A stretch of DNA of 32,000 nucleotides. It comes from Desulfotalea psychrophila LSv54 (lineage in GTDB: Bacteria; Desulfobacterota; Desulfobulbia; Desulfobulbales; Desulfocapsaceae). Below, in pieces: positions 3,141-32,000 of the stretch (the stretch's first letter is position 1; every line of letters starts with the position of its first letter). Location of the stretch: the NCBI RefSeq assembly GCF_000025945.1, contig NC_006138.1, forward strand, positions 750,001 through 782,000. Direction: 5' to 3'. The position numbers and the translations under genes are program-made. The notes beneath the pieces are model-generated. The model worked only from the letters and a program-made list of their open reading frames with translations, searched no databases and had not been told where the DNA came from.

Positions 3141-3594
3141 TGGCCTCTTCCTTCTGGTCAAAATATGCATTCATTTTTTTTGGAGTTAAGTTGGCCTCAA
3201 CCTCTTCATTGATCATGACACAGGGAGCAAGGGCACAACAGCCGATGCATGCTGCTGTTTCCAGGGTGTACTCACCATCTTCCGTGGTTTCACCTTCTTT
3301 TATACCAAGGCGTTTTTCAACGCTTGCTATGATCTTTTGAGCCCCTCGTACATGGCAGGCAGTTCCGCGGCAAACGGTGACCTTAGTTTTGCCGACGGGA
3401 GTAAAGCGAAATTGTTCATAAAATGTGGCGACGCCGTAGACGCGACTTTCGGGAATGCGTAAGAAATCGGCGACTTCTCTCATGGCATCTTCCGGCAGGT
3501 AGCCAAATTTGTGTTGGACATTCTGCAGAATGGGAATGAGTTCCATGTCTATGCCTGTGTATGAGTCAAGGATAGTTTTCACGATGTTTTGCAT
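3130..3594 (-). CDS. NuoE-like [2Fe-2S] subunit (24-kDa / HndA-type)
   Basis: CRGTACHVRG ... CIGCCALAPC is the four-Cys motif of the NuoE family. The ORF overlaps the NuoF-like start by 11 nt. Confidence 0.9.
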   Translation of the reverse strand: MQNIVKTILDSYTGIDMELIPILQNVQHKFGYLPEDAMREVADFLRIPESRVYGVATFYEQFRFTPVGKTKVTVCRGTACHVRGAQKIIASVEKRLGIKEGETTEDGEYTLETAACIGCCALAPCVMINEEVEANLTPKKMNAYFDQKEEANDD

Positions 3595-4022
3595 GATTTT
3601 GCTCGCAGAATTGATGTTTTGGGAAAAATAAGTATTGATGATATGGTAGTTGTTACTGCTAATTTATAAAATTTACGTCAATAGTCCAAGGTAAATAAAC
3701 GGGACAGCCTAGAGAACATTGCTTCTAAAGGCTATTTATTTTACACCTAAATTTTTTTTAAGGTGAGAAAGATATTTGCAAAAAGAGGAAAACACATATA
3801 TGATATTTTTTCTTGTTCTTATAGAGAACAAAATAACTATTTTGTGAGATTCGTTCAAAGAAAATGATAGCATGTTGTAGGCGAACTTATAAAAAAAGGT
3901 TGTTTTGTATCTTTATGATGCTAAGAGGGTATTTTTTTTGTATTGTAGCAGGAGTGTATTTATTACAATTATGTGCTGTTTTTGTGAACCATTACTCGTA
4001 ACCTCAATTAGATAAGACTGTT

Positions 4023-4295
4023 ATGATATTTGCGGGATTAAAATTAATGCTGGTCGGGATGACCACAGTACTTCTTTTTCTTATTGCGATGATCTTGCTC
4101 ATCCAACTTATTTCTTACTGTACTCGCGGGTTTGCCCGAAAGGAACTTGATGAGATAGAGGCAACAAGGCGTCGACAGGCTGAAGCAAGAAAGAAGAAGG
4201 CAGCAGCGAAGAGGACAGCAGTGGAAAATGTCGATGAAGATATTGCTGTTATTTCTGCAGCGGTTGCAGCCTTTGAAGCAGAGCGATATGCGTAG
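4023..4295 (+). CDS. oadG: Oxaloacetate decarboxylase gamma-chain-like small membrane subunit
   Basis: 90 aa with one N-terminal TM helix (LKLMLVGMTTVLLFLIAMILLIQLI) and a charged C-terminal tail. It lies directly upstream of oadA/oadB. Confidence 0.6.
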   Translation: MIFAGLKLMLVGMTTVLLFLIAMILLIQLISYCTRGFARKELDEIEATRRRQAEARKKKAAAKRTAVENVDEDIAVISAAVAAFEAERYA

Positions 4296-4354
4296 AGCAA
4301 AGACGCAAATGATAAGAGTTAATTCACCCCTTCCAGTATAAGGAGAATGATCAA

Positions 4355-12061: not shown

Positions 12062-13057
12062 ATGGATTTTAGAAATATCGGTTTTGTGGCCTGCGCGCTA
12101 CTTTTGAGTGCCTGTCAGCCTGTGGTTTATAGGCAAATGGTTCCGGTGACGACCAATCCCATGGGGGCAGATGTCCTTGTTGATGGTATCGCCTCCGGGA
12201 AAACGCCTACCTCACTTGATTTGGCGCGCAATCAGGATCATATCCTTACCCTGACTAAGTCGGGTTATCGTCAAGAGGATGTTACGGTAAAAAGGGTTTA
12301 TCATGCAGAGCAATCGGTTCTGGGGGCGGTGAGTCGAGGTCTTTCCGATGGTAAGTTCTTTGACGATGCCAATATGGGCATACAGTCAGGCATCTCTTCT
12401 CTGGAAACTCAAAAAACGACTGGCGAAGCCTATACTCTTTCGCCAACTGCTGTGGTTGTTACCCTTATGCCCGTTGGTGGGGTGGTGTCTGCCCCCGTAG
12501 CGGTGTCGGGAGAGGCTTTTGCTGCTCCCTCAGCACAGTCAACGCTGAATGTGACAGAGATAATGACATCCTTTGATCGGGAAATGCTTGATCGGGCTCT
12601 TGAGACGGGTAGATCGGGGCAGTCTGTGCAGTGGACAAATCCCGATAGTGGTTGGCATTTTGTAGTGGTGCCTCATTCTGCCGGTAGGCAGGAGGGGATG
12701 GTTACCAGAGATATTAGCGTTGTGGGCACCAAGGCAGGTCGTGTTTCCAAGGGGAAGTATCCGACCTATCGAGAGAATCGTAATGATTGGCGGATAGGTT
12801 ATCCAATGCATACCACCAAGGCTCTGGAAGTTGCGCCGGTAAACGAGAGAGCGCTTCTCTTTGGTGCGGCAAAGGTTGGTGCATCTGGGTTAAAGCCTAT
12901 TGGTGGAGAGAAGGAGTTGAGTCACTCAAGTCATAGCAGTGAATCCTGGGGGGCTGATGGCAGTCACACCACTACAACCAAGTCGAGTTCGACCAGTGCC
13001 AGTGTTTCTGTGAATCCGGCTGGAGCTATTGATTTGTTGGAGAAGTTGACTGAGTAG
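12062..13057 (+). CDS. Lipoprotein with an N-terminal PEGA domain and a C-terminal region with a surface-antigen-like motif and a Ser/Thr-rich tail
   Basis: Lipobox LLSAC at residues 14-18. PEGA-like segment: VTTNPMGADVLVDGIASGKTPTSLDL...LTLTKSGYRQEDVTV. The later segment GRSGQSVQWTNPDSGWHFVVVP resembles 17-kDa surface-antigen-type domains (from memory). Confidence 0.7.
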   Translation: MDFRNIGFVACALLLSACQPVVYRQMVPVTTNPMGADVLVDGIASGKTPTSLDLARNQDHILTLTKSGYRQEDVTVKRVYHAEQSVLGAVSRGLSDGKFFDDANMGIQSGISSLETQKTTGEAYTLSPTAVVVTLMPVGGVVSAPVAVSGEAFAAPSAQSTLNVTEIMTSFDREMLDRALETGRSGQSVQWTNPDSGWHFVVVPHSAGRQEGMVTRDISVVGTKAGRVSKGKYPTYRENRNDWRIGYPMHTTKALEVAPVNERALLFGAAKVGASGLKPIGGEKELSHSSHSSESWGADGSHTTTTKSSSTSASVSVNPAGAIDLLEKLTE

Positions 13058-13073
13058 GTGCAGTAGAAACAGA

Positions 13074-13108
13074 AAAAGGGTTTAGCAATTAAATTGCTAA
13101 ACCCTTTT
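13074..13108. terminator. Rho-independent terminator shared by the PEGA gene (+) and the tRNA-Glu/Lys operon (-)
   Basis: AAAAGGGTTTAGCAA-ttaaa-TTGCTAAACCCTTTT: a 15-bp stem with T-runs on both strands. Confidence 0.8.
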
Positions 13109-13114
13109 ATGTCT

Positions 13115-13192
13115 TGGCGTCCCCAAGGGGATTCGAACCCCTGTTGCCGCCGTGAAAGGGCGGTGTCCTAGACCTGACTAGACGATGAGGAC
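13115..13192 (-). tRNA. tRNA-Glu (anticodon UUC), copy 1, CCA encoded
   Basis: The reverse complement GTCCTCATCGTCTAGTCAGGTCTAGGACACCGCCCTTTCACGGCGGCAACAGGGGTTCGAATCCCCTTGGGGACGCCA folds as a cloverleaf. The anticodon loop is CUUUCAC. Confidence 0.95.
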
Positions 13193-13199
13193 AAGTGCG

Positions 13200-13275
13200 T
13201 GGTGGGGCGTGCGCGGCTCGAACGCGCGACTCTCTGATTAAAAGTCAGATACTCTACCAGCTGAGTTAACGCCCC
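13200..13275 (-). tRNA. tRNA-Lys (anticodon UUU), copy 1, CCA encoded
   Basis: The reverse complement GGGGCGTTAACTCAGCTGGTAGAGTATCTGACTTTTAATCAGAGAGTCGCGCGTTCGAGCCGCGCACGCCCCACCA has anticodon loop CUUUUAA. Confidence 0.95.
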
Positions 13276-13289
13276 ACTTGCGTGGCGGG

Positions 13290-13318
13290 AATATATAAGT
13301 TTCTTTGCTCTATGTCAA
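13290..13318 (-). promoter_or_regulatory. Sigma70-type promoter of tRNA operon copy 1
   Basis: The minus strand reads TTGACA-17 nt-TATATT, followed by a GC-rich discriminator (CCCGCC), 14 nt before the tRNA-Lys 5' end. Confidence 0.6.
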
Positions 13319-13726
13319 CACTTTTTCCCTAAAAAGTGAATGAATGTTGCTTTTATTTGAGTCCATTCCTTCTCCGGATCTATCCTCTTACCCCTTCTTT
13401 AAATTTTAAAAACCTAATTTCATAATCTTAGCCGTGTGACGGGTGGGTTTCCTTTTTGGTGGAGATAAGGGATTTAGCAAAATATTTTTTTGCGTTATCC
13501 CTGTTTTCTTTTGGATCTCTCCTAAAGGGAGCAAAGATAAATTTATAGTCGAAGGGTGGAGCAAGCACCTCTTGCCCAGGCTATTTTTTTTAAAGAGGGC
13601 CCCTTTGTTAGTCTTAATTCAGTTTTCTCTTGACATATGTTAACTAATATTTGACTTTTGCCTAATTTTTTAGTTGTTTCTTGCTCTGTATACAAAATTA
13701 TGGTGAATTTTATTTGGGAGATATTG

Positions 13727-13903
13727 ATGATTGGCTTAGAAGGTATAGCTGTGCCGCTTGGCATTATTCTTACCCTGCTCAGCACCCTGCTCTGCGTAGC
13801 TTATGGAGTGGTGAACTGGAATAGGGGGCATGTTACCGAGGGAGAACTTGCCCAGGAGTTGATGTGGAAGGCAGAAGAAATTAAAATTAAAGAGAATCTT
13901 TAG
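13727..13903 (+). CDS. Symporter small accessory protein (single-TM, 58 aa)
   Basis: GGGAG RBS 6 nt before ATG 13727. MIGLEGIAVPLGIILTLLSTLLCVAYGVVNWNRG resembles the small proteins encoded immediately upstream of SSS-family symporters. It ends 9 nt before the symporter start. The track ORF starts earlier, at 13658. Confidence 0.55.
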   Translation: MIGLEGIAVPLGIILTLLSTLLCVAYGVVNWNRGHVTEGELAQELMWKAEEIKIKENL

Positions 13904-13912
13904 GAGAGGATC

Positions 13913-15523
13913 ATGAATGTTCCCCTATTGACAACGGTGGTGCTGCTCTATCTATTTGTTGTGGGTTGTTTGACCGCAAAGGCCTACAGGGACACGGCAA
14001 CCACTGCCGACTATCTGGTTGCCGGTCGTGATATACATCCCTTTGTCATGGCCATATCCTACGGGGCGACCTTTATCAGTACCTCGGCTATTATCGGTTT
14101 TGGTGGGGCTGCCGCCGTCTTTGGCATGAGTTTGCTCTGGCTCACCTTTTTGACAATTTTTGTTGGTGTCTTTATTGCCTTTGTTTTTTTCGGGCGCAAG
14201 ACCAGAGTGATGGGAAGAAACCTCGATGCCCATACCTTTCCCGAATTTTTGGGGCTGCGTTTCCAATCAAAGACCCTGCAGGGCGGTATTGGCGGGGTGA
14301 TTTTCTTGACCATGCCCCTCTATGCCAGCGTTGTTCTCATGGGTGGGGCAAAATTTGTCTCACAGATTTTATCCATTGATTACAATGTGGCACTTTTTTT
14401 TCTCACCGTTATCATTGCCATTTATGTGATAATGGGTGGTCTTAAGGGTGTTATGTACACCGATGCCTTTCAGGGTGCCATCATGTTTATTGGCATGTTT
14501 GTTCTTCTTTTTTTCACCTATCATAAGTTGGGTGGTGTAGTTGCCGCCCATGAACAGCTGACCGCAATGAAGGATATCGCTATTAAGATATTTGGGGCGA
14601 AGGGACATACGGGCTGGACATCCTTTCCTGCCTTTGGTTCTGATTTTTGGTTTGTGGTGGTCACAACTCTTATAATGGGCGTGGGTATTGGGGTGCTTGC
14701 TCAACCGCAGCTTATTGTTCGCTTTATGACGGTGAAGAGTAATAGGGAGTTGAATCGCGCTGTTTTGATTGGTGGTGTTTTTATTGCGGTGGCGGTGGGG
14801 GTCTCCTTTGTTGTCGGAGCTCTTTCAAATGTGTTTTTCTATAAGTATGATCCGGCAACCCTGGGTAAGATATCGTTGTTGGCAACGGATAAGAACGTTG
14901 CTGAGATCATTCCCATGTATATCAGCCATGCCATGCCACAGTGGTTTACCGTTGTTTTTATGGTAACTCTGCTCAGTGCGGCGATGTCGACCCTGAGTTC
15001 TCAATTTCATACCATGGGCACATCCCTTGGCCGTGATATTTATGAGAAGGCCCTGGGACGAACGGGAAACTCTATCCTGATTACCAAGGCAGGTATTCTC
15101 CTGGCGATTTTGCTCAGCTATTTTCTGGCCTGGGGTCTGCCGCATTTTTTTGAGGGTGGTACTGCAATTATTGCCCGAGGCACAGCCATTTTTATGGGCA
15201 TATGCGCCGCTACCTTCTTGCCCATGTATTTTGGCGCCCTCTACTGTCGGGGGATGACCTTGTTTGGGGTCTATGTAAGTTTTTTTTCGGGCTTAGTGAC
15301 AAGTCTTTTTTGGATATTTTTTGTCCATCTTAAGGAGTCGAAACCGCTCATGCTCTGTCAGACGATTTTTGGTGTGGATTCTCTGGCCATGGGCAGTAAA
15401 TGGGCCCTGGTTGATCCTCTGATGATAGCTCTGCCGGTATCGATCGTGGCCATGTTTCTCTGTCGCTCCATGGGAAAACCGCTCTCATCAGAGCATCTTG
15501 ATCGCTGTTTCCGTAAGGTTTAG
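13913..15523 (+). CDS. Sodium:solute symporter (SSS) family transporter, substrate unknown
   Basis: 536 aa, about 13 predicted TM helices, SSS-like N-terminal region (DYLVAGRDIHPFVMAISYGATFISTSAIIGFGG). Confidence 0.9.
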   Translation: MNVPLLTTVVLLYLFVVGCLTAKAYRDTATTADYLVAGRDIHPFVMAISYGATFISTSAIIGFGGAAAVFGMSLLWLTFLTIFVGVFIAFVFFGRKTRVMGRNLDAHTFPEFLGLRFQSKTLQGGIGGVIFLTMPLYASVVLMGGAKFVSQILSIDYNVALFFLTVIIAIYVIMGGLKGVMYTDAFQGAIMFIGMFVLLFFTYHKLGGVVAAHEQLTAMKDIAIKIFGAKGHTGWTSFPAFGSDFWFVVVTTLIMGVGIGVLAQPQLIVRFMTVKSNRELNRAVLIGGVFIAVAVGVSFVVGALSNVFFYKYDPATLGKISLLATDKNVAEIIPMYISHAMPQWFTVVFMVTLLSAAMSTLSSQFHTMGTSLGRDIYEKALGRTGNSILITKAGILLAILLSYFLAWGLPHFFEGGTAIIARGTAIFMGICAATFLPMYFGALYCRGMTLFGVYVSFFSGLVTSLFWIFFVHLKESKPLMLCQTIFGVDSLAMGSKWALVDPLMIALPVSIVAMFLCRSMGKPLSSEHLDRCFRKV

Positions 15524-16321
15524 GCGTTCAGGGGCTTGCTCTTTAAAGACCTGTCCCGCTCCCCAGAGTTGGCTTATCTGGGCTGTTACCTCTGTTTGGT
15601 TGCCGCTGGTCCAGAATTCAGTTCTGCCATCCCTCTTCGTAGGAGAGAGGAGGGATGATATGGCTAATTGCTTTTTGAGCTCTTGGGTGACGGGCACTGA
15701 GGTGTCGATGAGTTGGGCCCTGCCTGAAATAATCTTTTTGATGCTCGGGGCGAGAAAGAGGTAGTGGGTACAGCCAAGGACAATGTAGTCAGCACCGGCC
15801 CTGAGCAGAGGCTCTACGTATCCCTCTATGGCCTCGGTGGTCTCGTTACCGGTGAGATTGCCTGCTTCGACCAGTTCCACCAGGCGGGGGCAGGCTTGAA
15901 TTTCTATTTGGCTTTTTCCTGCAAATCTCTTTTTCAGTGTTTGAAAGGAGCTACTCTTCAGAGTTTGTCGGGTGGCAAGAACACCTATTATGCCTGATTT
16001 ACTCTGCTGCACAGCAGGTCTTATGCCGGGCTCAACGCCAATAATGGGGATATTTGATGTGGCTCGCAGATATGCTATGGCATTTGCGGTGGCGGTGTTG
16101 CAGGCCACGACGATGGCCTTGCAGCCTTTTTTAATCAGGAAAGCGGTAATATGTTTTGCCCTGCTTCTGATCAGCTCTGCAGGTTTTGTTCCGTAGGGTG
16201 AAAAACCCGTGTCAGCAAAGTATATAAGGTCTTCCCGCGGCAGAAGCTCTTTGATTTTAAGGGCCACGGAGAGTCCGCCGACACCCGAGTCGAATATTCC
16301 TATAGGTTTTTTTGCTTTCAT
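15488..16321 (-). CDS. murI: Glutamate racemase
   Basis: Motifs IGIFDSGVGGLSV, VVACNTATA and LGCTHYLFL (the two catalytic Cys motifs). I prefer ATG 16321 (MKAKKPIGIF) over GTG 16375. Confidence 0.9.
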   Translation of the reverse strand: MKAKKPIGIFDSGVGGLSVALKIKELLPREDLIYFADTGFSPYGTKPAELIRSRAKHITAFLIKKGCKAIVVACNTATANAIAYLRATSNIPIIGVEPGIRPAVQQSKSGIIGVLATRQTLKSSSFQTLKKRFAGKSQIEIQACPRLVELVEAGNLTGNETTEAIEGYVEPLLRAGADYIVLGCTHYLFLAPSIKKIISGRAQLIDTSVPVTQELKKQLAISSLLSPTKRDGRTEFWTSGNQTEVTAQISQLWGAGQVFKEQAPERLNLTETAIKML

Positions 16322-16460
16322 CTTGATAAGTTGTTTGGCTCGCTTAGTCTGTTTATAGCACTGCCCGAAAGGCACAATCGTTTACTATAATAATTTTCTG
16401 TAGAATAAAAGCAAGCTTTGCCTCTGGGCGGATGGGGTGATTTGCTACAGGTTGGCAGTT

Positions 16461-16544: not shown

Positions 16545-16622
16545 TGGCGTCCCCAAGGGGATTCGAACCCCTGTTGCCGCCGTGAAAGGGCGGTGTCCTG
16601 GACCTGACTAGACGATAGGGAC
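16545..16622 (-). tRNA. tRNA-Glu (anticodon UUC), copy 2
   Basis: Same as copy 1 except one D-loop change and two acceptor-stem changes that keep pairing (C5:G68, U6:G67). Confidence 0.95.
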
Positions 16623-16638
16623 AAATCATGGAAAGCAA

Positions 16639-16714
16639 TGGTGGGGCGTGCGCGGCTCGAACGCGCGACTCTCTGATTAAAAGTCAGATACTCTACCAGC
16701 TGAGTTAACGCCCC
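16639..16714 (-). tRNA. tRNA-Lys (anticodon UUU), copy 2
   Basis: Identical to copy 1 by eye. The spacer to tRNA-Glu is 16 nt, versus 7 nt in copy 1. Confidence 0.95.
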
Positions 16715-18281: not shown

Positions 18282-18430
18282 GGTGTCATTATGGGTGGAA
18301 GATTGTAGATATGTTTAACCTCTGGTAATTATAGCGTAAAAAAAACAACGAGGCTAGAGATAACGACTTGTCCCCTATTTTATTTGAGAATGAGTTTTTC
18401 ACTAGTTTTTAGAGGATAGAGTTATAGCTT

Positions 18431-19169
18431 ATGAGAAGATTTTTTTTCAGTCGGCAACAGGAAGAAGAGGGGCTGGTGGTTCTTTCACCAGAGGAGTCCA
18501 GGCATATCAGTAGGGTTCTCCGGCTTGAGCCCGGTGAGGTGGTTGAACTGCTCGATGGTCGTGGCTCTGTCTTTGGTGGTGAAATTGTTGCGGTTGGAGC
18601 AGAGGTGCAGGTAAGAATTACGGCAGAGCGTCCAACTGTGGTGGGACAAACGGACGGTACGTGTTGCTCAGGGCGTTTTGAAGGGGCAGAAGATGGATTT
18701 GGTCATTCAAAAGTGCACTGAACTCGGCGCCGAGGTGTTTATTCCCTACGATGCTGCCCGTAGTCAGGGCAAGCTCGATGCCAGTCAGGCCCGGAAAAAG
18801 CAGGAACGTTGGCAGCGTATCTCCCTTGAGGCCTGCAAGCAATGTATGCGTCCCCAACCTATGACCGTTGCCTCTCCCGCCAGTTTTGTCGATCTTGTTA
18901 CGGCTGAGTCAGTCGAAGGACCTCGGCTTAAACTTATCTTCTGGGAGGAGGAGAGTGCGACAAATTTATATAACTTGCCGGGGCTTGCCGATGCCTCTGG
19001 GGTGGATATCATTCTTGGCCCGGAGGGAGGGATCTCCCGGGAAGAGATAGAGATTGCTCGCGCTCATGGTTGGCAGACGGTGAGTCTGGGACAGCGCATT
19101 CTTCGGGCAGAAACGGCAGCCATTGTCGCCCTTACACTTGTTCAGTATTTGACGGGAAATTTATCGTGA
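18431..19169 (+). pseudogene. rsmE: 16S rRNA (uracil1498-N3)-methyltransferase RsmE, split by a +1 frame change (pseudogene, sequencing error or recoding)
   Basis: ORF 18431-18721 gives the PUA-like N-terminus (MRRFFF...EESRHISRVLRLEPGEVVELLDGRG). The conserved SPOUT part (VRVAQGVLKGQKMDLVIQKCTELG...ILGPEGGISREE...LRAETA) is in the next frame, which is open from 18615 to 19169. Confidence 0.6.
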
Positions 19170-20224
19170 AAAAAGAGAAGGAAGGGCAAGCAATTGATCC
19201 CGAAACTATGTTGGCTGAGGCTTTACATAGCGTGGCCTTTACCGATCCCTCCTATGGGGATTATCTGGTGGTCGATGTTCGCACTCATGCAGAATTTATC
19301 GAAAATTCCCTGCCAGGTGCGATCAATATTCCTCTCTTTGATGAGATGGAGCGAAGCGTTATTGGTACCCTCTATAAGCAGGTGGGCAGGCAGGAGGCCG
19401 TGCAGGCAGGATTTGAAATTGTCCACCCTAAGCTCTCCGCGATTGTCGAGAGCTTTGAACCTTATCGACAGAGAAAATTGCTTATCTCCTGTGCCCGTGG
19501 TGGCATGCGTTCCCGGGCGGTGGTCAATCTTTTAGCAGGGCAGGGGTTTAATATTGCTCAGCTGGAGGGTGGTTATAAGGCCTATCGTCACACTGTTCTG
19601 GACAGGGTGAAGAACTTTGCCCCGGAGATGATTGTCCTGCACGGGATGACTGGGGTGGGAAAGACCCGCATCATCGAAAAGCTCTCCCCTAGTATTGATC
19701 TGGAGTTGATGGCTAATCATCGAAGTTCTCTCTTTGGTGCCCTGGACCGAGAGGCGAGCAATCAAAAAGGTTTTGAGGCGGCGTTTTATCAAAAAATAGA
19801 GGAAGGTGGGCAGGAACCATTTTTTGTGGAAGGAGAGAGCAGGAAGATCGGTCAGGTCTTTATGCCCGATCGTTTTGCTGTGGCCATGAAGCAGGCTAGG
19901 ATGGTATTTGTTACAGCTTCCATGGAGACCCGTGTTCAACGCATTATCGAAGACTATCCCATGGATGATCCTCAGGTGCGTAGCAAGGCCCTGGCTGTAG
20001 TTAAATCCCTGCGTCAACGGTTGGGAGGGAAGATTGTTGACCAGCTTTCCCTTCTTCTGCAGCGTGATGATCTCTCCGAGTTTGTCCATATTCTTCTTAC
20101 TGACTATTACGACGGGCGTTATGGCAACTGTATGCTCGAGTATAACTACGACCTTCGCCTCTCCTCTGAGAATATTGACGATACCGTGGCCGAGTTGGTT
20201 AAGTATCGACAGAGCCTGCTCTAG
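19166..20224 (+). CDS. selU: tRNA 2-selenouridine synthase (rhodanese domain plus P-loop domain)
   Basis: VVDVRTHAEF...INIPL...ERSVIGTLYKQ, rhodanese active site CARGGMRS, and Walker A GMTGVGKT. The proposed GTG start at 19166 overlaps the rsmE stop (GTGA). The track ORF begins at TTG 19070, inside rsmE. Confidence 0.85.
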   Translation: MKKEKEGQAIDPETMLAEALHSVAFTDPSYGDYLVVDVRTHAEFIENSLPGAINIPLFDEMERSVIGTLYKQVGRQEAVQAGFEIVHPKLSAIVESFEPYRQRKLLISCARGGMRSRAVVNLLAGQGFNIAQLEGGYKAYRHTVLDRVKNFAPEMIVLHGMTGVGKTRIIEKLSPSIDLELMANHRSSLFGALDREASNQKGFEAAFYQKIEEGGQEPFFVEGESRKIGQVFMPDRFAVAMKQARMVFVTASMETRVQRIIEDYPMDDPQVRSKALAVVKSLRQRLGGKIVDQLSLLLQRDDLSEFVHILLTDYYDGRYGNCMLEYNYDLRLSSENIDDTVAELVKYRQSLL

Positions 20225-20417
20225 CCTCGCTTGATCCCCTCCTTTGAATAGCTCGTGGCCACGGGTATTTTTTACTTTGTGGCTTTTTAGCGAGGAGAAG
20301 CATTCTCGGTGCGAGGAGGAAGGGCAAACCTAAGCTCAGAGTTGCTTCGGTTACCATATAAAAATATTGTAATCCTATTACGCCAATTATTTTCTTATCC
20401 CCTTAGGGAGGTTCCCA

Positions 20418-21647
20418 GTGTTTCATAGTTTCAGATCTTCTCTCTTGCTTGTTCTCCTGGTAGCAGTGACAGTTTGGCCCTTAACCAGTAGCGCAGAAGG
20501 TGGAGAACCCGGTTGTAAATACAAACAGTGGGTAAGGTTGATAGAGCATGATGGTGAGGAGGTAAGTCTGTCCAGTGCCAGAATAAGAGTAATCGCCGGT
20601 GATGAACTCTTAATTACCATGGCGGATGGTCATCTGCAGCTCGTCCGCCTCCATAATATTCTCTGTCCGCAGCCCGGCCAGGCATTAGACTCAAAAGCCA
20701 GAGAATTTACCCTTAAATACATCGAAAAAAACCGCGCTAGCCTCTATTGGCTGGAAACTGGCAAGAGAGACGATCATCTGGTTGGTCACATTTATTCAGG
20801 GGAGCCGGACTTCTCAGTTCTTGACTCCGACATAGGGAGTATGCTTGGCAACGAGTTGGTTTACTCAGGGCTGGCCTCTGTCGAGTCAGACTCGCCTGGC
20901 GCCTCTTCTGAGTCATTGCTGGTAATGAGGAGAAATGAAGAGCTCCTCTCCTTCCAGGATGCGGCTATCGCCAGCAAAAGAGGACTTTGGTCCGCTACGG
21001 TAAAAAACAAGCCTCAGGTTCTCCTGGTCCGCCAATTCAAATTTTCCGGCAGGGACTATTGGGCAACCTACCTGGAGGACTTTGAGTACACCAGTTGGCA
21101 CCGCAGTTGGCAGCGTGCCAAATTAGAGGCAACCGGGGAAGCACCCCCGACGGACGCCCCGCCAAGTGATCCCACGGCTGTCGGGGAGGTCAAACCTGAT
21201 GAGCAGCTGACCAACTGTGTATTTAATAGAAACCGCTCTGACAACCGGGATAAAGTTCCTTGGAACGGTGCTGTTTGGGAGTGTGGGGAATATTATAACA
21301 ACGGTCGTTGCAAATTCACCAGAAAGTATAAGGGCGGTGATCCCATAGCAAACAAAATGGGTTCTCGGCCAGACGGGGAAAAAGTTCGGATTGAAAGATC
21401 TGATGTGAAGGCTGTGGAGGCCAGGCCTTCTGAGGCTTCAAAGCCTGAGAGAGTATCGAGCGTCCCTTCAGCTAAGACCACAGCTTTCGGGGAGGGCGAG
21501 AAGCTGGCCAACTGTGTATTCAACAGAAACCGCTCTGACAACCGGGAAAAAGTTATCTGGAACGGTGCTGTTTGGACGTGTGGGGAATATTATAACAACG
21601 GTCGTTGCAAATTCACAAAAAAGCTTAGAGACCTGAAACCCCAGTGA
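20418..21647 (+). CDS. Secreted hypothetical protein: signal peptide, degenerate SNase (thermonuclease)-like domain, two copies of a 40-aa three-Cys module
   Basis: GGGAGG RBS 6 nt before GTG 20418. Signal peptide MFHSFRSSLLLVLLVAVTVWPLTSSAEG. SNase-like stretch VIAGDELLITMADGHLQLVRLHNILCPQ...HLVGHIY...ELVYSGLA. C-terminal repeats NCVFNRNRSDNR[DE]KV.WNGAVW.CGEYYNNGRCKFT. Confidence 0.75.
   Translation: MFHSFRSSLLLVLLVAVTVWPLTSSAEGGEPGCKYKQWVRLIEHDGEEVSLSSARIRVIAGDELLITMADGHLQLVRLHNILCPQPGQALDSKAREFTLKYIEKNRASLYWLETGKRDDHLVGHIYSGEPDFSVLDSDIGSMLGNELVYSGLASVESDSPGASSESLLVMRRNEELLSFQDAAIASKRGLWSATVKNKPQVLLVRQFKFSGRDYWATYLEDFEYTSWHRSWQRAKLEATGEAPPTDAPPSDPTAVGEVKPDEQLTNCVFNRNRSDNRDKVPWNGAVWECGEYYNNGRCKFTRKYKGGDPIANKMGSRPDGEKVRIERSDVKAVEARPSEASKPERVSSVPSAKTTAFGEGEKLANCVFNRNRSDNREKVIWNGAVWTCGEYYNNGRCKFTKKLRDLKPQ
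21207..21326 (+). repeat. Intragenic repeat, copy 1 (40 codons)
   Basis: 109 of 120 nt are identical to 21504-21623 by my manual alignment. The offset is 297 nt (99 codons). Confidence 0.9.
21504..21623 (+). repeat. Intragenic repeat, copy 2 (40 codons)
   Basis: See copy 1. Confidence 0.9.
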
Positions 21648-21648
21648 T

Positions 21649-21852
21649 ATGAAGAGCTATGAGCGATGCGTTTTTGCAAGCGAGCTCGCTAAAGACCGTT
21701 ACCGGGAGCTTGTAGACGAGGCCTCTTATCGGATAATGGCCCTGTTCTACAATCATGCGGATATGGAGCTCTGGTTGTCGGCGAGGGGCAGGAGATGCCG
21801 CATCTGGCCCATCTTCTGTTTTTGCGCCACGAGGAGTCCAGCTAAGTGGTAA
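21649..21852 (+). CDS. Small hypothetical protein (67 aa), possibly degraded at its 3' end
   Basis: The ATG is 1 nt after the upstream stop. The first ~44 aa look helical and protein-like (MKSYERCVFASELAKDRYRELVDEASYRIMALFYNHADMELWLS). The tail is R/C/W-rich and looks out of frame. Confidence 0.3.
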   Translation: MKSYERCVFASELAKDRYRELVDEASYRIMALFYNHADMELWLSARGRRCRIWPIFCFCATRSPAKW

Positions 21853-21916
21853 TGGGGCCGGCAATACTGTCGGCATTTTGATGAAAGGCATAATAGCTTG
21901 ACGGGGTCGTTGCCTA

Positions 21917-22414
21917 ATGAACGCTTTTGCTATTTTTCTGACAATATTTTTTGCTGCGCCCGCATTGTGCCTGGAGACCTCCGTCGACGGCGAGCTTTTT
22001 GAGACGAGCCGGCAGGTCGATGTTCTTGATTGTGGCTCATATAAGATTGAAACGGTGCAAGAGATTTGGCCGGAAGAACTTCTCTGGGACCTGATACCCA
22101 AAGGCGCATCCAGCGGCCATTTTGCCGACCTGTCAGTGCTCTCGCATGAAAACTACCTTGTTCTACCTCGAGGGGAGAGGATTAGGATCCCGAATTTTAA
22201 GCGAATCCACCAGGACAGCCCGGGATTGTATCGGGATCGGGTTTATTTTTCGTACCCCCAGGCCTGCGTGGGGAGGAAGGTGATTTTTACCCTGTGGGCC
22301 GGGGGTAACTGCAGTAAATGTGAGGTGTGGATCGAGGCGGTCTTTTCCGAAGAAGGTACACTGATTAACTCGCAGATCATCGACTATCAGGAAGTTGAAG
22401 GGCAATTGCCGTAA
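21917..22414 (+). CDS. Secreted hypothetical protein (165 aa, 4 Cys after the signal peptide)
   Basis: Signal-peptide-like N-terminus MNAFAIFLTIFFAAPALCLE. I recognise no family. Confidence 0.55.
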   Translation: MNAFAIFLTIFFAAPALCLETSVDGELFETSRQVDVLDCGSYKIETVQEIWPEELLWDLIPKGASSGHFADLSVLSHENYLVLPRGERIRIPNFKRIHQDSPGLYRDRVYFSYPQACVGRKVIFTLWAGGNCSKCEVWIEAVFSEEGTLINSQIIDYQEVEGQLP

Positions 22415-22644
22415 TGGAGAAACGAAGCTTGTCACCATCTCCACCTCAACCTAAAGCGGTTCATAAGATGATTTCTTCCGAAAGACTCAGAATCTTTTTC
22501 TTCATGACCGAGGTCGGTTCCAGTTATAAACTCAACAGCCGCCTTTTTGTTAAAAACCCGGATATAGATTATTGCTCTCAATTAGAGTGGTGCAGAACGG
22601 AATATTACATCTTCAAGGCTGGGAAGTTTGTTCCCCTAAGGTAG
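22414..22644 (+). CDS. Small hypothetical protein (76 aa)
   Basis: The ATG overlaps the upstream TAA by 1 nt (TAATG). No recognisable motif. Confidence 0.3.
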   Translation: MEKRSLSPSPPQPKAVHKMISSERLRIFFFMTEVGSSYKLNSRLFVKNPDIDYCSQLEWCRTEYYIFKAGKFVPLR

Positions 22645-22768
22645 GCTTTGTCTATTCACAGGCGGTGGCGTTTAGGCTATGCGGGCGATGTGCTGTGGAT
22701 GTAGGCAGTTCGTCGCCGCAGCTTATCATTACACCTTATCTGGCAAAACATTTAAAATATATGGACCC

Positions 22769-23140
22769 ATGAATACTGATAACATAAAGCAAGAGTTTGT
22801 TGTTCCACCTCTTCAGCCCCTCAGGGTAACGGAAGGCTGGCTAATGTTATATAACAGCGCCTTATATGAGATAGACCCATTGTCTGAAGTTATTTCGGAA
22901 GCCGAGAGATGGTGGCTCTGCAAAGAGGATATGCTGCAAATGCGTCATGATGCCCGAAATAGGATGCTTGACTTGGGGTGGTGTAGAGAGGGTGATCTCG
23001 AAAATGGGAATTATATGTTGGTGCTCCATGAGGGTGATTGTACTGGAAAGCTTCTTTACGAAAAACTAAGCACTAGCAGGCTTGAGATTGTTTCTGAAAT
23101 TGAAAAAATCTTGCTTCTGGTTACCGAGGGAAAGTTGTGA
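22769..23140 (+). CDS. Cytoplasmic hypothetical protein (about 124 aa, acidic, Trp-rich)
   Basis: The track ORF is open from 22679. The compact protein-like part starts at MNTDNIKQEF (ATG 22769). No signal peptide or TM helix. Confidence 0.5.
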   Translation: MNTDNIKQEFVVPPLQPLRVTEGWLMLYNSALYEIDPLSEVISEAERWWLCKEDMLQMRHDARNRMLDLGWCREGDLENGNYMLVLHEGDCTGKLLYEKLSTSRLEIVSEIEKILLLVTEGKL

Positions 23141-23585
23141 AAATGCCGCATAACATCGCAGGTATGCAGCAGTCAAATTTTCCTCTATGTTCATGGTCTC
23201 TCTTATGGGGATTTTGTCCTGGCCGGGAAAAAGCAGAATGCGAGGGGAACATCAGGGAGAGGTGGATCATTCTCTGCAGGTAGGCCTCGGAATTAGCAGA
23301 TATTGCCGTATAGAGGTGCAGCCGACAAGAACAGTGTAGGTGTAGAAAATCCTTGTTACCTTCCCTGTAGCTTGCGCAATGCCCTCCCTTTTAAAGCCTC
23401 TCGATGAGAACCCCGGTAAGAACGACTGAGGCAATTTCCAAAGAGATATAACTAGAATAGGGAGTATCTTTTTTCTGTTGTTAAACGCACTGGGAAAAGG
23501 TTGTTAAAACTGTTGTGACTGTCTTGATTTAGGTATATGTTGTAAGCAGTTACATGCTACTAACTGGTAGCATGTTAAATGATTA

Positions 23586-23724
23586 ATTCTCAGGGCGGGG
23601 TGGAATTCCCCACCGGCGGTGATTCCCTGTGGGGACAGCCCGCGAGCGCCTGTCATTATGGCAGGGTCCAGCTGATCTGGTGAGATTCCAGAGCCGACGG
23701 TTAGAGTCCGGAAGGAAGAGATAA
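23586..23724 (+). promoter_or_regulatory. FMN riboswitch (RFN element)
   Basis: CTCAGGGCGGGGTGGAATTCCCCACCGGCGGTGA...AGCCCGCGAGCGCC...GGTCCAGCTGATCTGGTGAGATTCCAGAGCCGACGGTTAGAGTCCGGAAGGAAGAG matches the conserved RFN core. It lies 88 nt upstream of ribB. Confidence 0.92.
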
Positions 23725-23811
23725 GGCGGTAATCCGTAGTGGTGCTTTCTGTGCCATGTTCTTTAATGCTCCTCCATGCCCTGATTCTGGTAAATAAAAG
23801 GAGAAATTACC

Positions 23812-24456
23812 ATGGGTCAGTCTCTATTGAGTTCTTTTGGCGATGCACAACAGCGAGTTGAAAAATCACTTCAGGCCCTGCGACAGGGAGAAGGGGTGCT
23901 TTTGGTGGATGATGAAGATCGCGAAAATGAAGGCGATCTCATCTATTCTGCAGAGCATCTCACCGCCAAGCAGATGGCTCTGATGATCCGGGAAGGTTCG
24001 GGTATTGTCTGTCTCTGTTTGACTGGAGAGAAGGTGGATGAGCTTAAGCTACCCCAGATGGTGACCAACAATAATAGCCGCCATGGTACGGGATTCACTA
24101 TCTCTATCGAGGCTCGGGATGGCGTAACCACGGGCGTTTCTGCGGCAGACCGTACTCAGACTGTCAAGGCAGCTATTGCTGAAGGTGCCGTGGCTGAAGA
24201 TCTCTGTCAGCCAGGTCATGTTTTTCCACTTCGTGCTCGGGATAATGGCGTACTTGATCGTCGTGGCCATACCGAGGGCACCGTTGATCTGATGAAGCTT
24301 TCAGGTCTCGCTCCCGCAGGCCTTCTCTGTGAGTTGACCAATGTCGATGGAACCATGGCTCGTCTTCCCGAGATTGTAGACTTTGCCCGCAAGAGAGATA
24401 TGCAGGTGCTCAGCATTGAGGATATTGCCCAATATCGTCAGGGACACAATTTATAG
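23812..24456 (+). CDS. ribB: 3,4-dihydroxy-2-butanone 4-phosphate synthase (stand-alone)
   Basis: [20 protein letters not shown] and [11 protein letters not shown] motifs. AGGAG RBS 8 nt before the ATG. Confidence 0.92.
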
Positions 24457-24479
24457 ACGAGGGTTACGGGGCCTGGTAG

Positions 24480-25091
24480 CTAAAGGTCCTTATTGATGCT
24501 CAGGCCTTGGTGTTCCAGGGTCCTGAGTTGGCAGAGGCATTCCGAAAAACTATCAAGACGTAAATTGGTAGAGAGTTTTATTAATGCCCCATAGTCAGTG
24601 CTGAGGCTTTCGGCTTCATATTCGGTAAGGATTCTGTTTACCGCCTGTTGTAGTGGGTAGGAGAATTCAAGTGCCACCCTTTGGTAGGAGTGTTTGGTTC
24701 GAGTTTTGAGTTCTGCCAGGGCATGTTGTACGGCTCCGCTGTAGGCACGGGCCATACCTCCGGTACCTAACTTTGTCCCACCAAAATAGCGACTGACCAC
24801 GGCACATATTTCACCGATGCCCGAGTGATGGATAACGTTGAACATGGGTTTGCCCGCACAGCCCTTGGGCTCTCCATTGTCGTTCATCCCCCAGCAGGAG
24901 GGATCTGTTGGTTTTCCCGCGACATAGGCCCAACAGTTATGGCTTGCCGTGGGGTGTAGGCACTGTATCTTTTTTATAAAATCCTGGGCAATATCTTGTT
25001 CAGGGCAGTGGCTGATATAGCAGATAAACTGGCTTTTTTTGACGATGTCCGTTGTCTGGTGTTCGTGGGCGGGGATAGGATAACTCTGCAT
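24480..25091 (-). CDS. yigZ: YigZ / IMPACT-family (UPF0029) protein
   Basis: KSQFICYISHC...ASHNCWAYV...DNGEPKGCAGKPM...VVSRYFGGTKLGTGGMARAYSGAV. Confidence 0.8.
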   Translation of the reverse strand: MQSYPIPAHEHQTTDIVKKSQFICYISHCPEQDIAQDFIKKIQCLHPTASHNCWAYVAGKPTDPSCWGMNDNGEPKGCAGKPMFNVIHHSGIGEICAVVSRYFGGTKLGTGGMARAYSGAVQHALAELKTRTKHSYQRVALEFSYPLQQAVNRILTEYEAESLSTDYGALIKLSTNLRLDSFSECLCQLRTLEHQGLSINKDL

Positions 25092-25134: not shown

Positions 25135-25755
25135 CTATTTGTTTTTCTTGTCTTTCTTCTTGCAAGCAGCTTCTTTGGGTGTCTTTCCGTCTTCTTGCTT
25201 TTTGCCCTTCTTTTTCTCTTTTTTCTTTTTAGCTTTTTTCTTCTTCTCTTTTTCGGACTGCTCTTTTAGGGAGAGAAGCTTCTGCTCTTTTTTATCCTTC
25301 TTCTTGCTATCTTTGTCGTTCTTCTTTTTCTTCGCCATCTTTTTCTTCTCCTTTTTTACTGGTATTATTGAATTATCCATTTCAACTTTGGCAGAATCAG
25401 GAGCTGTCGTCAAATTTATTTTTTCAGTCTCTGCAGGTTCCGGAACATCCATGACCTCTGTCTCCTCTGCGGGGACTTCTGGTGCTGGACTTATGGCTAT
25501 CAAGGCAGGATCTGTGTCAGCAAACATTTGCAGACCACTCTTTTTAAAGAGGACAAGGGCGTAGCGTAGTTGTCCTAGAGTCATGCTGCTGGCTTTTGCC
25601 GCCTGGGTTTGGGTCATTCCGTCGTCGATAGAGAGCAGGGCGGTAGCTCTTTTGCTGTCGGAAATTACCTCCTGCTGCGCAACTTTTTCGCAGATTGTCC
25701 GTTCGGAGAGACTCAATAGTTTTCCTGGTGTTATATCTGAGGATATTTCGGTCAT
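25135..25755 (-). CDS. Putative DNA-binding protein: N-terminal HTH-like domain, acidic linker, extremely Lys-rich C-terminal tail
   Basis: RATALLSIDDGMTQTQAAKASSMTLGQLRYALVLFKKSGLQMF resembles HTH_23/transposase-type helix-turn-helix domains. About half of the last ~73 residues are Lys (KKEKKKMAKKKKNDKDSKKKDKK...KKKKAKKKKEKKKGKK...). Confidence 0.65.
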   Translation of the reverse strand: MTEISSDITPGKLLSLSERTICEKVAQQEVISDSKRATALLSIDDGMTQTQAAKASSMTLGQLRYALVLFKKSGLQMFADTDPALIAISPAPEVPAEETEVMDVPEPAETEKINLTTAPDSAKVEMDNSIIPVKKEKKKMAKKKKNDKDSKKKDKKEQKLLSLKEQSEKEKKKKAKKKKEKKKGKKQEDGKTPKEAACKKKDKKNK

Positions 25756-30104: not shown

Positions 30105-30644
30105 ATGAAAGTTTCTGTGTATATCGCAACCAGCTTGGATGGATATATTGCCCGGGCCGATGGAGATATCTCCTGGCTCAGGGAGGCAGGTAGTTCTGCC
30201 GGTCAGGAAGATTATGGCTATGGAGAGTTCTTTCGCTCGGTGGACTGTATGATACTGGGGAGAAAGAGCTTTGAAACGGTCCTGAGCTTTCCCACCTGGC
30301 CCTATACCGGCAAACGGGTAATTGTCCTGACCAAGACCTTGGAGGAGATCCCTGCCCGGGTACGGGGAAGGGTTGAACTCTATTCAGGCTTGATGAAAGA
30401 ACTGGTGGCCAGCTTGGAGGCAGAGGGATGCAGGCGTATTTATATAGATGGTGGCAAAATTATCCGCTCCTTTCTGCGAAAAAATCTCCTTACCGATATT
30501 ACCATAACAAGAATTCCCCTCCTTCTCGGTGAAGGCATTCGTCTCTTTGGCGAGACCGGCTACGATATTAAGCTTAGACATATAAAAACAAAGTCTTATG
30601 AAAGTGGCTTTGTTAAGTCGACCTATGAGTTTGCCCTGCAGTAA
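30105..30644 (+). CDS. Dihydrofolate reductase-family / RibD C-terminal-domain protein
   Basis: MKVSVYIATSLDGYIARADGDISWL...ILGRKSFE...IYIDGGKIIRSFL...ITRIPLLLGEGIRLF is typical of the RibD_C family. Confidence 0.8.
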   Translation: MKVSVYIATSLDGYIARADGDISWLREAGSSAGQEDYGYGEFFRSVDCMILGRKSFETVLSFPTWPYTGKRVIVLTKTLEEIPARVRGRVELYSGLMKELVASLEAEGCRRIYIDGGKIIRSFLRKNLLTDITITRIPLLLGEGIRLFGETGYDIKLRHIKTKSYESGFVKSTYEFALQ

Positions 30645-30812
30645 TTGTTTAAAAGTGTTTATATAACTTTGTCAGCTATTTTTAGCTATAAAGATGACCT
30701 GTTAATGGCCATATCCGCAGAATTGTCTTTGCACTGTTATTTGTTGGCGACTTTATCCTTTCTCTCTCCTCACCTTTGCCAAAAGCGGCAGAAATATTAG
30801 GCTCCAGTTAGC

Positions 30813-30857
30813 AAAAAAAAGGTCAATCTGCGTCTCTAATGTCAATTGATTGACCTT
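30813..30857 (-). terminator. Orphan terminator-like hairpin, oriented for minus-strand transcription
   Basis: The minus strand reads AAGGTCAAT-21 nt-ATTGACCTT followed by TTTTTTGC (the A8 run at 30813-20 on the plus strand). No annotated minus-strand gene lies upstream of it. Confidence 0.35.
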
Positions 30858-31265
30858 AGGCAAAACTGTTCTAGCAGAGCTTATTTTGGTTCATTTTCTA
30901 CGGATTATGGACTTTTTGTCAGCAAATAATTTGTTTTATTGCTTTTTTAGGAGAAAAAAAGGCTAGGGAGTTGCCGCTTAAGACAACAGTAGAATTGTCT
31001 CTTTTGGTTATGTTTTGCCGAAGATTGTTCTGTTTTATGCCTGCTCTTCTAGCTCTACCCGAGGGCTTCTAACATGCAAAATAAATGGATTTTAACTTTT
31101 TCTTATTGTATTTAAGTAAATTGAGCCTGCAACAGTACTACCTAACTTAAGTTAAATAGCCCTAAGGATCTTCACAGAGGCCTAATAAGTTTTTTTTATT
31201 GAAAGCATAAAAAATAATAATTTAGCTTGTGCTCGGCCTCTCAGGTTTATATAGTGCATCAAATT

Positions 31266-31293
31266 TTTACATAGTATGTATCAAAATTATACA
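31266..31293 (+). promoter_or_regulatory. Candidate sigma70 promoter with an overlapping palindromic operator, upstream of the alanine:cation symporter gene
   Basis: TTTACA-16 nt-TATACA. The perfect palindrome TACATA-G-TATGTA (31268-31280) overlaps the -35 and the spacer. Confidence 0.35.
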
Positions 31294-31385
31294 TGCAAGA
31301 GGACATTTAGGTTTGGAGAGAAAATCTTTTTAGGTCTTTTTGCTGGTTGAGCAAACTGTTAAGTCAATGAGGGAGAGGAGAATAC

Positions 31386-32000
31386 ATGGATTTCTTGGAA
31401 ACTTTTGGGGTAGTTGTCGCAAAACTTAACTCTTTTGTCTGGGGGCCGCCAATGCTTATCATGTTGGTGGGTACCGGTTGTTGGCTAACCTACAACCTTC
31501 GCGGCATTCAGTTCCGACAGCTCGGCCACTCTCTCTGGCTTGCCTTTGTAAAGCGTAAGGAAGATACCGATGAGCCGGGTGATATCAGTCACTTTCAGGC
31601 CCTGATGACAGCCTTGGCCGCAACCGTTGGTACCGGTAATATTGCCGGTGTTGCCACGGCTATTGCCATTGGTGGTCCCGGAGCCCTTTTTTGGATGTGG
31701 ATGAGTGCCCTGGTCGGTATGGCAACGAAGTACGCTGAGGCCATCCTTGCAGTAAAATATCGTGTCCAAGATGAAAATGGTGAAATGTGTGGTGGCCCAA
31801 TGTACTACATTGCCCGTGGTTTGAAGAAGCCATGGCTTGGTGCAATTTTTGCGGCCCTTGCCGCAATTACCGCCCTGGGTACCGGGAATATGGTTCAGTC
31901 CAACTCCATCGCCGATGTCCTTGAGGCAACCTGCAGTATCCCACCCATGTACACCGGTATCGCTCTGATGATATTTACAGCCCTTGTTGTTTTGGGTGGT
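31386..32000 (+). CDS. Alanine/glycine:cation symporter (AGCS family), 5' part; continues beyond the window
   Basis: Not in the ORF track because there is no stop in the window. Hand translation from ATG 31386 (RBS GGGAGAGGAG upstream) stays open to 32000: [31 protein letters not shown]...[41 protein letters not shown]... This is the AGCS signature region. Confidence 0.85.

Follow-up and report, generated by a model that had tools for sequence, protein, structure and literature searches.

The five small open reading frames (ORFs) that lie packed between the core genes selU and ribB of Desulfotalea psychrophila LSv54 raise the question of whether they form one undescribed genetic system, as a sequence-only reading of this DNA had proposed, or are unrelated genes that have come to lie side by side. 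All coordinates, unless another locus is named, are those of the window, i.e., the whole 32-kb stretch of this genome that was analysed, and the five ORFs are numbered ORF1-ORF5. The explanation that we favour, with a probability of roughly 0.7, is that positions 20225-~23570 are a lineage-specific accessory islet in the selU-ribB spacer, a mosaic of unrelated cassettes and not one machine. This explanation is carried by a related genome in which the same spacer lacks the block, by the truncated state of two of the five ORFs, and by the families of the three intact ORFs, which were not found as neighbours of one another at other loci.

A block in the selU-ribB spacer

Species-representative genomes were scanned with SelU, and one relative was obtained, the metagenome-assembled genome (MAG) Desulfotalea sp. 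MAG tPB_Delt2, whose SelU is 67% identical to that of LSv54. At the corresponding locus of this MAG (L001), selU stops at 10981 and is followed, 27 nucleotides (nt) on, by the flavin mononucleotide (FMN) riboswitch at 11009 and then by ribB, so that window positions 20225-~23570 have no counterpart there. In the junction alignment, LSv54 and the MAG become similar again only ~15-20 nt ahead of the riboswitch. The wider gene order is kept in L001 (tRNA pairs, prmA, rsmE, selU, ribB and a UPF0029 gene), which also keeps a lysine-rich helix-turn-helix (HTH) gene and has a large gene where the window has its ORF of 1267 amino acids (aa). This presence or absence relative to a related genome is the sole island-like trait of the block. 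The features of the block and its flanks are as follows:

19217-20224, + strand: selU/mnmH (tRNA 2-selenouridine synthase), core gene, left flank (NCBIfam NF008750, E 8e-111)
20225-~23570, no strand: lineage-specific islet, ~3.35 kb, absent at the same spacer of Desulfotalea sp. MAG tPB_Delt2
20251-20275, + strand: terminator-like hairpin and T-run directly past selU (from a consensus scan and the sequence; putative function)
20418-21647, + strand: ORF1, 409 aa, GTG start, locus DP0698
20643-20993, + strand: SNase-like domain of ORF1 (residues ~76-192), followed by a linker and two 3-Cys modules
21201-21326, + strand: Cys module 1 of ORF1, copy 1 of a 126-nt in-frame direct repeat
21498-21623, + strand: Cys module 2 of ORF1, copy 2 of the 126-nt direct repeat
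21649-21852, + strand: ORF2, 67 aa
21917-22414, + strand: ORF3, 165 aa
22414-22644, + strand: ORF4, 76 aa
22679-23140 (153 aa) or 22769-23140 (124 codons), + strand: ORF5, two possible starts
23141-23581, no strand: non-coding islet tail, ~441 bp, without an ORF of note
23582-23727, + strand: FMN riboswitch, right flank, outside the islet (Rfam RF00050, 106.9 bits)
23812-24456, + strand: ribB (3,4-dihydroxy-2-butanone 4-phosphate synthase), core gene, right flank (Pfam PF00926, DHBP_synthase, E 3.6e-79)

In its anatomy the block is much as the sequence-only reading had described it. The five ORFs are co-directional, and their coordinates and exact spacings were reproduced: a gap of 1 nt separates ORF1 from ORF2 and one of 64 nt separates ORF2 from ORF3, ORF3 and ORF4 share 1 nt (in a TAATG overlap), and ORF5 follows ORF4 after 124 nt, or after 34 nt if its start is placed at 22679. 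The flanks that had been named, selU on one side and the FMN riboswitch with ribB on the other, are confirmed by NCBIfam, Rfam and Pfam matches (the mechanical ORF of selU begins at 19070, the real start being probably farther downstream), and neither an integrase, a transposase nor an adjacent tRNA accompanies the cluster, as had been stated. The unexplained sequence said to follow the cluster is indeed there; the tail gave no Rfam match at E<=1, and the promoter of ribB probably lies in its final few tens of bases. Pfam, NCBIfam, PADLOC and PHROGs agree with the earlier verdict that no named family is represented in ORF1-ORF5, save for a borderline SNase match in ORF1. The descriptions of the larger products likewise hold, the 409-aa product of ORF1 having a signal peptide, a degenerate SNase-like domain and duplicated Cys modules, the 165-aa product of ORF3 being secreted with four Cys in its mature part (five overall), and the product of ORF5 being cytoplasmic and, in its 124-codon form, acidic (isoelectric point 4.7). 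A consensus scan saw a weak hairpin at 21857-21874 and no strong internal terminator among the ORFs. In a codon-usage likelihood test trained on core genes of the window, frame 0 is backed for ORF1, ORF3 and ORF5, with an in-frame signal of 0.27-0.33 as compared to 0.42-0.60 in the tested core genes; the frame of ORF4 is marginal and that of ORF2 is unsupported, a reverse-strand frame model scoring best there.

Remnants and separate families within the islet

The families discussed here were found by an exhaustive HMMER search of 1.84 billion representative proteins, made with the five ORF products concatenated, in which ORF2 and ORF4 matched one protein each. The relative of ORF2 is P0128 (217 aa), matched through ORF2 residues 3-40 only. 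When P0128 was aligned to the window by tblastn, it matched a frame +1 piece ending at 21768 (convincing from ~21655) and a frame +3 piece at 21774-21839, with a joint E of 3e-13, from which it follows that ORF2 represents the last ~65 of the 217 codons and carries a frameshift near 21768-21774. On this two-frame match ORF2 is to be regarded as a pseudogene remnant, both 5'-truncated and frameshifted; ORF2 itself has no Pfam match. In our own scan, P0128 overlaps by 1 nt a gene for PF14112 'Immunity protein 22' (Imm22), and its precomputed annotation carries the label MafI2 (PF26541), the name of a family that blocks the RNase A-fold toxin MafB2 of Neisseria (PMC9970974). The sole match of ORF4 is P0050, a secreted protein of 160 aa, whose C-terminus corresponds to the last 48 codons of ORF4 (22498-22641; 60% identity over 48 aa, E 9e-17). 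The ~112 codons at the 5' end of a P0050-like gene are missing, and ORF4 is thus recognisable as a 5'-truncated remnant of a gene for a 160-aa secreted protein. (A paralogy between ORF3 and P0050, both of which have a W-G-G-x-C motif, was considered and dropped, the profile comparison giving a probability of 0.3%.) A milder loss is seen at ORF5, whose core of ~110 aa (22808-23137) is intact. Among its homologues, some have in addition HEAT repeats, a second copy in tandem or, at the N-terminus, a CxxC...CxxC zinc ribbon, and the closest of the zinc-ribbon relatives (P0004, P0027 and P0029) align to ORF5 only from the second CxxC on ('RFWCARCQDW' vs 'MRAMCCGCRQF'), P0004 aligning from 22676; the frame ahead of ORF5 is closed by stops, and of the ribbon ORF5 has kept the second half only. 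Three successive junctions therefore cut the 5' end of the downstream gene; the tight spacing reflects cassette truncation and not operon design.

Co-occurrence of the intact genes was assessed by tblastn with all 150 representatives and the window ORFs against ~510 kb from 93 loci, made up of 80 metagenomic loci of the ORF5 family (463 kb, 29 of the loci being at least 6 kb long), 8 of the ORF3 family (28 kb) and 5 of the ORF1-module family (21 kb). The metagenome scan was run with the ORF5 family alone, the three-family alignment being too divergent. Cross-family neighbours among the ORF1-module, ORF3 and ORF5 families were absent from all 93 loci, and the ORF1 modules, ORF3 and ORF5 belong to three separate, uncharacterised families. 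The proposal of one undescribed five-ORF system fares badly here, since two of the three outcomes that the sequence-only reading had itself listed as counting against it are what was found: the small ORFs are not conserved genes, ORF2 being a frameshifted remnant and ORF4 a truncated one, so that the components of a single system are not all intact, and the genes do not co-occur, with no conserved gene order to be seen elsewhere. The accompanying suggestion of an effector with an inhibitor or immunity protein survives in its immunity flavour, given that ORF2 is MafI2-like and that the ORF5 family follows a toxin domain at three loci (see below), and not in the set of effector, partner and inhibitor that it envisaged; the block holds no toxin, the nuclease-like domain of ORF1 lacking catalytic residues and the window lacking the toxin domain with which the ORF5 family is partnered.

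Other searches returned little. A word-indexed search of 5.8 billion proteins matched ORF1 only to itself (177439.DP0698) and ORF2-ORF5 to nothing, and a three-family profile used in the same search returned only P0149. An exact-sequence look-up of ORF1 gave no record, a literature search on locus tags DP0698-DP0702 gave nothing relevant, plasmid and phage collections gave as their only match an ORF5 homologue on a Calothrix plasmid, and viral contigs gave no relatives of ORF3 or ORF5. Sequence searches of the Protein Data Bank (PDB) with ORF1, ORF3, ORF5 and P0128 found nothing meaningful.

The exhaustive search assigned to ORF3, which is intact, ~21 representative homologues of ~165 aa (best E 2e-19) that have in common a signal peptide, four conserved Cys and the motif W-[SGA]-G-G-N-C-x(2,3)-C-E (alignment A4). 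An AlphaFold2 model of ORF3 made with this alignment is all-beta behind the signal helix, with a predicted local distance difference test score (pLDDT) of 90.6, and its best Foldseek match in the PDB is a weak one, 4id2 (DUF4738), at E 4e-3 and a TM score of 0.39-0.45. The ORF5 model, made with its own family alignment (A5), has a pLDDT of 94.6 and a beta-alpha-beta4-alpha layout, and Foldseek found no match for it in the PDB (best E 1.2). To judge from these models, the families of ORF3 and ORF5 are real and foldable, and neither has a relative that has been characterised. The one long locus of the ORF3 family (L087, which encodes P0032) is an array of small co-directional genes, among them transposases, a reverse transcriptase and immunity genes of the SUKH_5/SMI1_KNR4 and CdiI_3 families, and another family member, P0049, adjoins a phage-type integrase; such contexts hint that ORF3-family genes may be mobile, conflict-related cargo.

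ORF1, the largest gene of the islet, is preceded by a strong ribosome-binding site (GGGAGG, 5 nt ahead of the GTG) and opens with a signal peptide recognisable by eye, MFHSFRSSLLLVLLVAVTVWPLTSSA, with EGG after the cleavage point. The match of Pfam SNase (PF00565) to ORF1 (E 5e-4, 20.9 bits) falls below the gathering cutoff of 21.0; its alignment runs from position 2 to position 106 of the 107 in the profile, and the identity to staphylococcal nuclease is 26%. By comparison with a SNase reference sequence, D21 and R35 are kept, D40 is replaced by L, T41 by C and E43 by Q, and the region of R87 is deleted. With these catalytic residues lost, ORF1 should not cleave nucleic acid, and it is almost certainly not a nuclease. 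The two 126-nt repeat copies (repeat D1), which encode modules of the pattern 'CVFNxNR...WxC...GxC', are 90% identical and derive from a recent 126-nt duplication; 3 codons differ synonymously and 6 non-synonymously between them, too few for selection on the modules to be inferred. The homologues of ORF1 cover the Cys modules only, being ~20 representatives, all small secreted proteins with 1-3 modules of the pattern 'C-x-CVFNKNR...W-x-C...G-T-C', and the ORF1 modules, unlike those of most relatives, are without the first Cys. No toxin context was found around the module-family proteins. Over the N-terminal ~220-245 residues ORF1 is uncovered by any match at E<=1e-3 in the 1.84 billion representatives, and neither the word-indexed nor the exhaustive search found a full-length homologue. 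Most likely, ORF1 is a secreted, non-catalytic SNase/OB-fold binding protein with two small Cys modules.

The ORF5 family and its toxin partner

The ORF5 family has ~100 representative homologues (E values down to 1e-28), most of them 105-120 aa long. The neighbours of these homologues are heterogeneous, with 87 Pfam families among 91 neighbours and none of the families in more than two. When the neighbours were clustered all against all, the only cluster to join divergent loci consisted of the proteins directly upstream of the ORF5 homologue in L028, L063 and L041/L042, which are homologous over their last ~125 residues (L028 vs L063, 50% identity, E 5e-37) and otherwise differ in scaffold:

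L028, 7563-7952: toxin domain of an LXG + PT-TG protein of 621 aa
L063, 7585-7959: toxin domain of an eCIS_core protein of 1270 aa
L041/L042, 1659-2075 in L041: toxin domain of an orphan C-terminal fragment (175 aa), ahead of which lie a PT-TG + EndoU toxin and then a 111-aa gene

This ~125-aa domain, which has no Pfam match, is marked by the motifs 'HG-x-KH' and 'W-[IV]-RAE' and by a closing 'HGHP', and it lies upstream of the ORF5-family gene at a distance of 8-21 nt. It matches residues 1429-1520 of PDB 8qjc_A, the toxin end of a Salmonella bongori PAAR-Rhs protein, with an E of 1.8e-8 and with inclusion of the HGHP motif. The 8QJC toxin is reported to have no CDD, Pfam or InterPro family assigned to it and is predicted to have an RNase fold like that of a CdiA-CT RNase toxin; the HGHP motif contains its proposed active-site histidines, H1515 and H1517, and its production needed a co-expressed immunity protein (bioRxiv 10.1101/2024.02.26.582050). 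One toxin domain on several scaffolds, with an ORF5-family gene within 8-21 nt, is what typically marks a toxin-immunity pair, and ORF5 homologues do lie, as members of an immunity family would, directly downstream of a recurrent toxin C-terminal domain on different scaffolds. A profile of the toxin domain had no match when run against the window translated in six frames, so that ORF5 would be an orphan; the reading that suits it best is that of an immunity-type gene without its toxin. About even weight is placed on a view in which the ORF5 family is an immunity family not described before, its fold lacking a PDB match, that is directed against the S. bongori Rhs-type RNase toxin, and in which two more undescribed secreted-protein families are represented by ORF3 and by the CVFNxNR Cys module.

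Two further observations concern the ORF5 family. The small-gene arrays near its members in L012 and L054 contain no recognisable immunity families and just an HTH_3 gene, and are uninformative; at L012 7545-8333, an Xre-type HTH_3 gene (92 aa) is followed after 3 nt by the gene of a close, zinc-ribbon-bearing ORF5 relative (168 aa) and then by small unknown genes, and such an Xre-type linkage may be an alternative setting of the closest ORF5 subfamily. Kinship of ORF5 with the TY-Chap3 chaperones was not adopted, 1 of 68 family members giving a match, at a sub-threshold E of 1e-4.

On the explanation that we favour, the islet would be, at least in part, what is left of immunity cassettes from polymorphic-toxin systems. 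ORF5 would block, by binding to it, an RNase-type toxin domain of the type found at the C-terminus of S. bongori's PAAR-Rhs protein, a domain that competitors would send in by way of LXG (type VII secretion), Rhs (type VI secretion) or eCIS scaffolds. ORF2 would formerly have been an immunity gene of the MafI2 type, ORF3, being exported, may guard against an effector that acts in the periplasm, and ORF1 would be a secreted, non-catalytic binder. Since no toxin is encoded in the islet, any benefit would be defensive only.

Competing explanations and known systems

A number of points weigh against the reading of the islet as a mosaic of immunity-type cassettes. The toxin association is seen at three independent loci and concerns distant ORF5 homologues (29-38% identity to ORF5), and the closest relatives (45-61% identity) lie in contexts without a toxin, namely beside PSD1/PSCyt2, next to an HTH_3 gene or within arrays of small genes of unknown kind; the other recurrent neighbours of the ORF5 family, a dUTPase-linked and a CysS-linked arrangement, reflect synteny within one lineage. 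For ORF3, the immunity reading is weakly supported, resting as it does essentially on one long locus. The MafI2 label of P0128 comes from the precomputed annotation, was not given by a local copy of Pfam or by a PDB sequence search, and is therefore provisional. The islet has neither integrase, transposase, adjacent tRNA nor terminal repeats, its G+C content (0.46-0.53) is like that of the flanks, and so it shows none of the traits by which genomic islands and mobile elements are classically recognised, i.e., an integrase or transposase, a tRNA target, flanking repeats and a shift in composition. With a single comparator genome, an insertion in LSv54 and a deletion in the MAG are not strictly separable.

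Of the alternatives, the one that holds up best, doubtful as we consider it, is that the ORF5 family is a general small cytoplasmic protein, e.g., a regulator or chaperone-like adaptor, to which the adjacency of a toxin is incidental. This would accord with the non-toxin contexts of most homologues, with the conservation of the dUTPase-linked and CysS-linked arrangements each within its lineage, with the fusions to HEAT repeats and zinc ribbons and the tandem copies, and with the one sub-threshold TY-Chap3 match. It does not, however, account for the same toxin domain directly upstream on three delivery scaffolds, this domain being the only partner that recurs across lineages, and orphan copies and fusions are usual in known immunity families too.

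Rather improbable is a block ancestral to Desulfotalea that was deleted in the lineage of the MAG, in which case the region would be old and decaying and not acquired. The use of one comparator, the flank-like G+C content, the absence of mobility genes and repeats, and a second difference nearby, the MAG having an extra 528-aa gene past ribB, are all compatible with such a history. The homologues of the intact genes, however, are scattered over unrelated metagenomic contexts and not over related lineages, one ORF5 homologue residing on a plasmid of the taxonomically distant Calothrix, and there is no full-length homologue of ORF1; the codon-usage signal of the islet, moreover, is below that of the core genes.

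Quite unlikely, again, is that ORF1 and ORF2 are the relic of a decayed toxin-immunity pair, with ORF1 derived from a secreted nuclease toxin and ORF2 from its immunity gene. ORF2 does begin 1 nt past the ORF1 stop and comes from an immunity-type gene, and ORF1 does combine a nuclease-like fold with a signal peptide, but MafI2-type proteins inhibit an RNase A-fold toxin and not SNase (PMC9970974). The homology of ORF2 starts only at codon ~153 of the 217-aa P0128, so that the junction between ORF1 and ORF2 is a truncation and not that of a native pair. In addition, the C-terminal Cys modules of ORF1 occur in small secreted proteins with no toxin context, and its N-terminal 245 residues have no homologue among the matches at E<=1e-3 in the representatives searched. 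A new system encoded by one operon, with ORF1 as effector-like protein, ORF3 as its secreted partner and ORF5 as cytoplasmic inhibitor, is slightly less likely still, for although the ORFs run in one direction and are closely spaced (one gap and one overlap being of 1 nt each), a weak hairpin is the nearest thing to an internal terminator and no product has a known function, ORF2 and ORF4 are fragments, the three intact families are never together at other loci, the block is missing from the related MAG, ORF1 is without the catalytic residues of SNase, and the recurrent partner of the ORF5 family is a different one that is not present in the window. Least probable of all is that ORF1, ORF3 and ORF5 cooperate as a lineage-specific module (secreted SNase-like binder, periplasmic partner and cytoplasmic component) that was assembled de novo from unrelated cassettes.

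Several features of the surrounding sequence were seen in passing. In L001, the extra 528-aa gene lies at 12292-13878 between ribB and the UPF0029 gene, where LSv54 has 23 nt (window ~24456-24480). The gene rsmE (16S rRNA methyltransferase; window 18428-19169) is split over two frames in LSv54, residues 7-73 of the MAG RsmE matching frame 2 (18428-18628) and residues 82-250 matching frame 3 (18654-19166), which points to a true frameshift or pseudogene if it is not an error of sequencing. The window holds two copies of a tRNA-Glu/tRNA-Lys pair (13115-13275 and 16545-16714), and the ~3.3 kb between the two pairs hold a sodium:solute symporter gene (13913-15523) and a gene of the Asp/Glu racemase family (15488-16375, minus strand); the tRNA pairs of the MAG are only ~1.06 kb apart, and the tract between them in LSv54 may be a second lineage-specific insertion. 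The minus-strand ORF of 206 aa at 25135-25755 has a weak N-terminal HTH match and a lysine-rich low-complexity tail (KKKEKKK...), and its position is conserved in the MAG (L001 14749-15237). Stretches of low G+C occur at 3501-4500 (0.31-0.43) and 30501-31500 (0.37-0.38), as compared to ~0.49 elsewhere in the window.

The islet itself matters little, being a small strain-specific patch with decayed genes, of a type common in bacterial genomes. What its analysis yields of most use is a link, open to testing, that joins the ORF5 family to the RNase toxin domain of the S. bongori Rhs type. It ties a widespread family of ~110 aa, for which there is no Pfam model and whose very confidently predicted structure has no match among solved structures, to a toxin domain that the authors of 8QJC had left without a family. 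Two unnamed secreted families are added to this, the four-Cys periplasmic beta protein of ORF3 and the Cys module of ~40 aa, neither with a match in Pfam, NCBIfam, PADLOC or PHROGs. There is also a caution for genome scans, in that tight packing and 1-nt overlaps can be produced by cassette truncation as well as by operon design.

Of the known systems with which the islet can be compared, SNase (PF00565) resembles ORF1 in that the alignment covers nearly the whole profile and D21 and R35 are kept, and differs from it in the sub-cutoff score and the lost catalytic residues. The MafI2 protein of Neisseria MafB2 is linked to ORF2 through the precomputed label of P0128, its sole relative, of which ORF2 keeps the last ~30%, frameshifted. 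The likeness to S. bongori's PAAR-Rhs toxin (PDB 8QJC; immunity protein S5MXF1) lies in the toxin domain upstream of ORF5 homologues, the comparison being on the toxin side alone, and unlike that system the window has no such domain. Another parallel is with the orphan immunity genes and arrays of Rhs, CDI, Maf and LXG loci, including the 'acquired interbacterial defence' clusters. Unlike these, the islet is without a recombinase, and no toxin gene, Rhs/CDI/LXG/Maf scaffold or secretion-system gene was seen in the 32-kb window as scanned, in which not every ORF was searched; ORF1 is not recognisable as either an immunity or a toxin gene, and direct links to immunity families exist for two of the five ORFs only (ORF2 and ORF5). 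Like these arrays, the islet consists of small, co-directional, tightly packed genes of unrelated families without a cognate toxin, and it includes 5'-truncated cassettes, one of them a MafI2-like remnant, alongside one gene whose family follows a shared toxin C-terminal domain (ORF5) and another whose family occurs in a SUKH/CdiI_3 array (ORF3).

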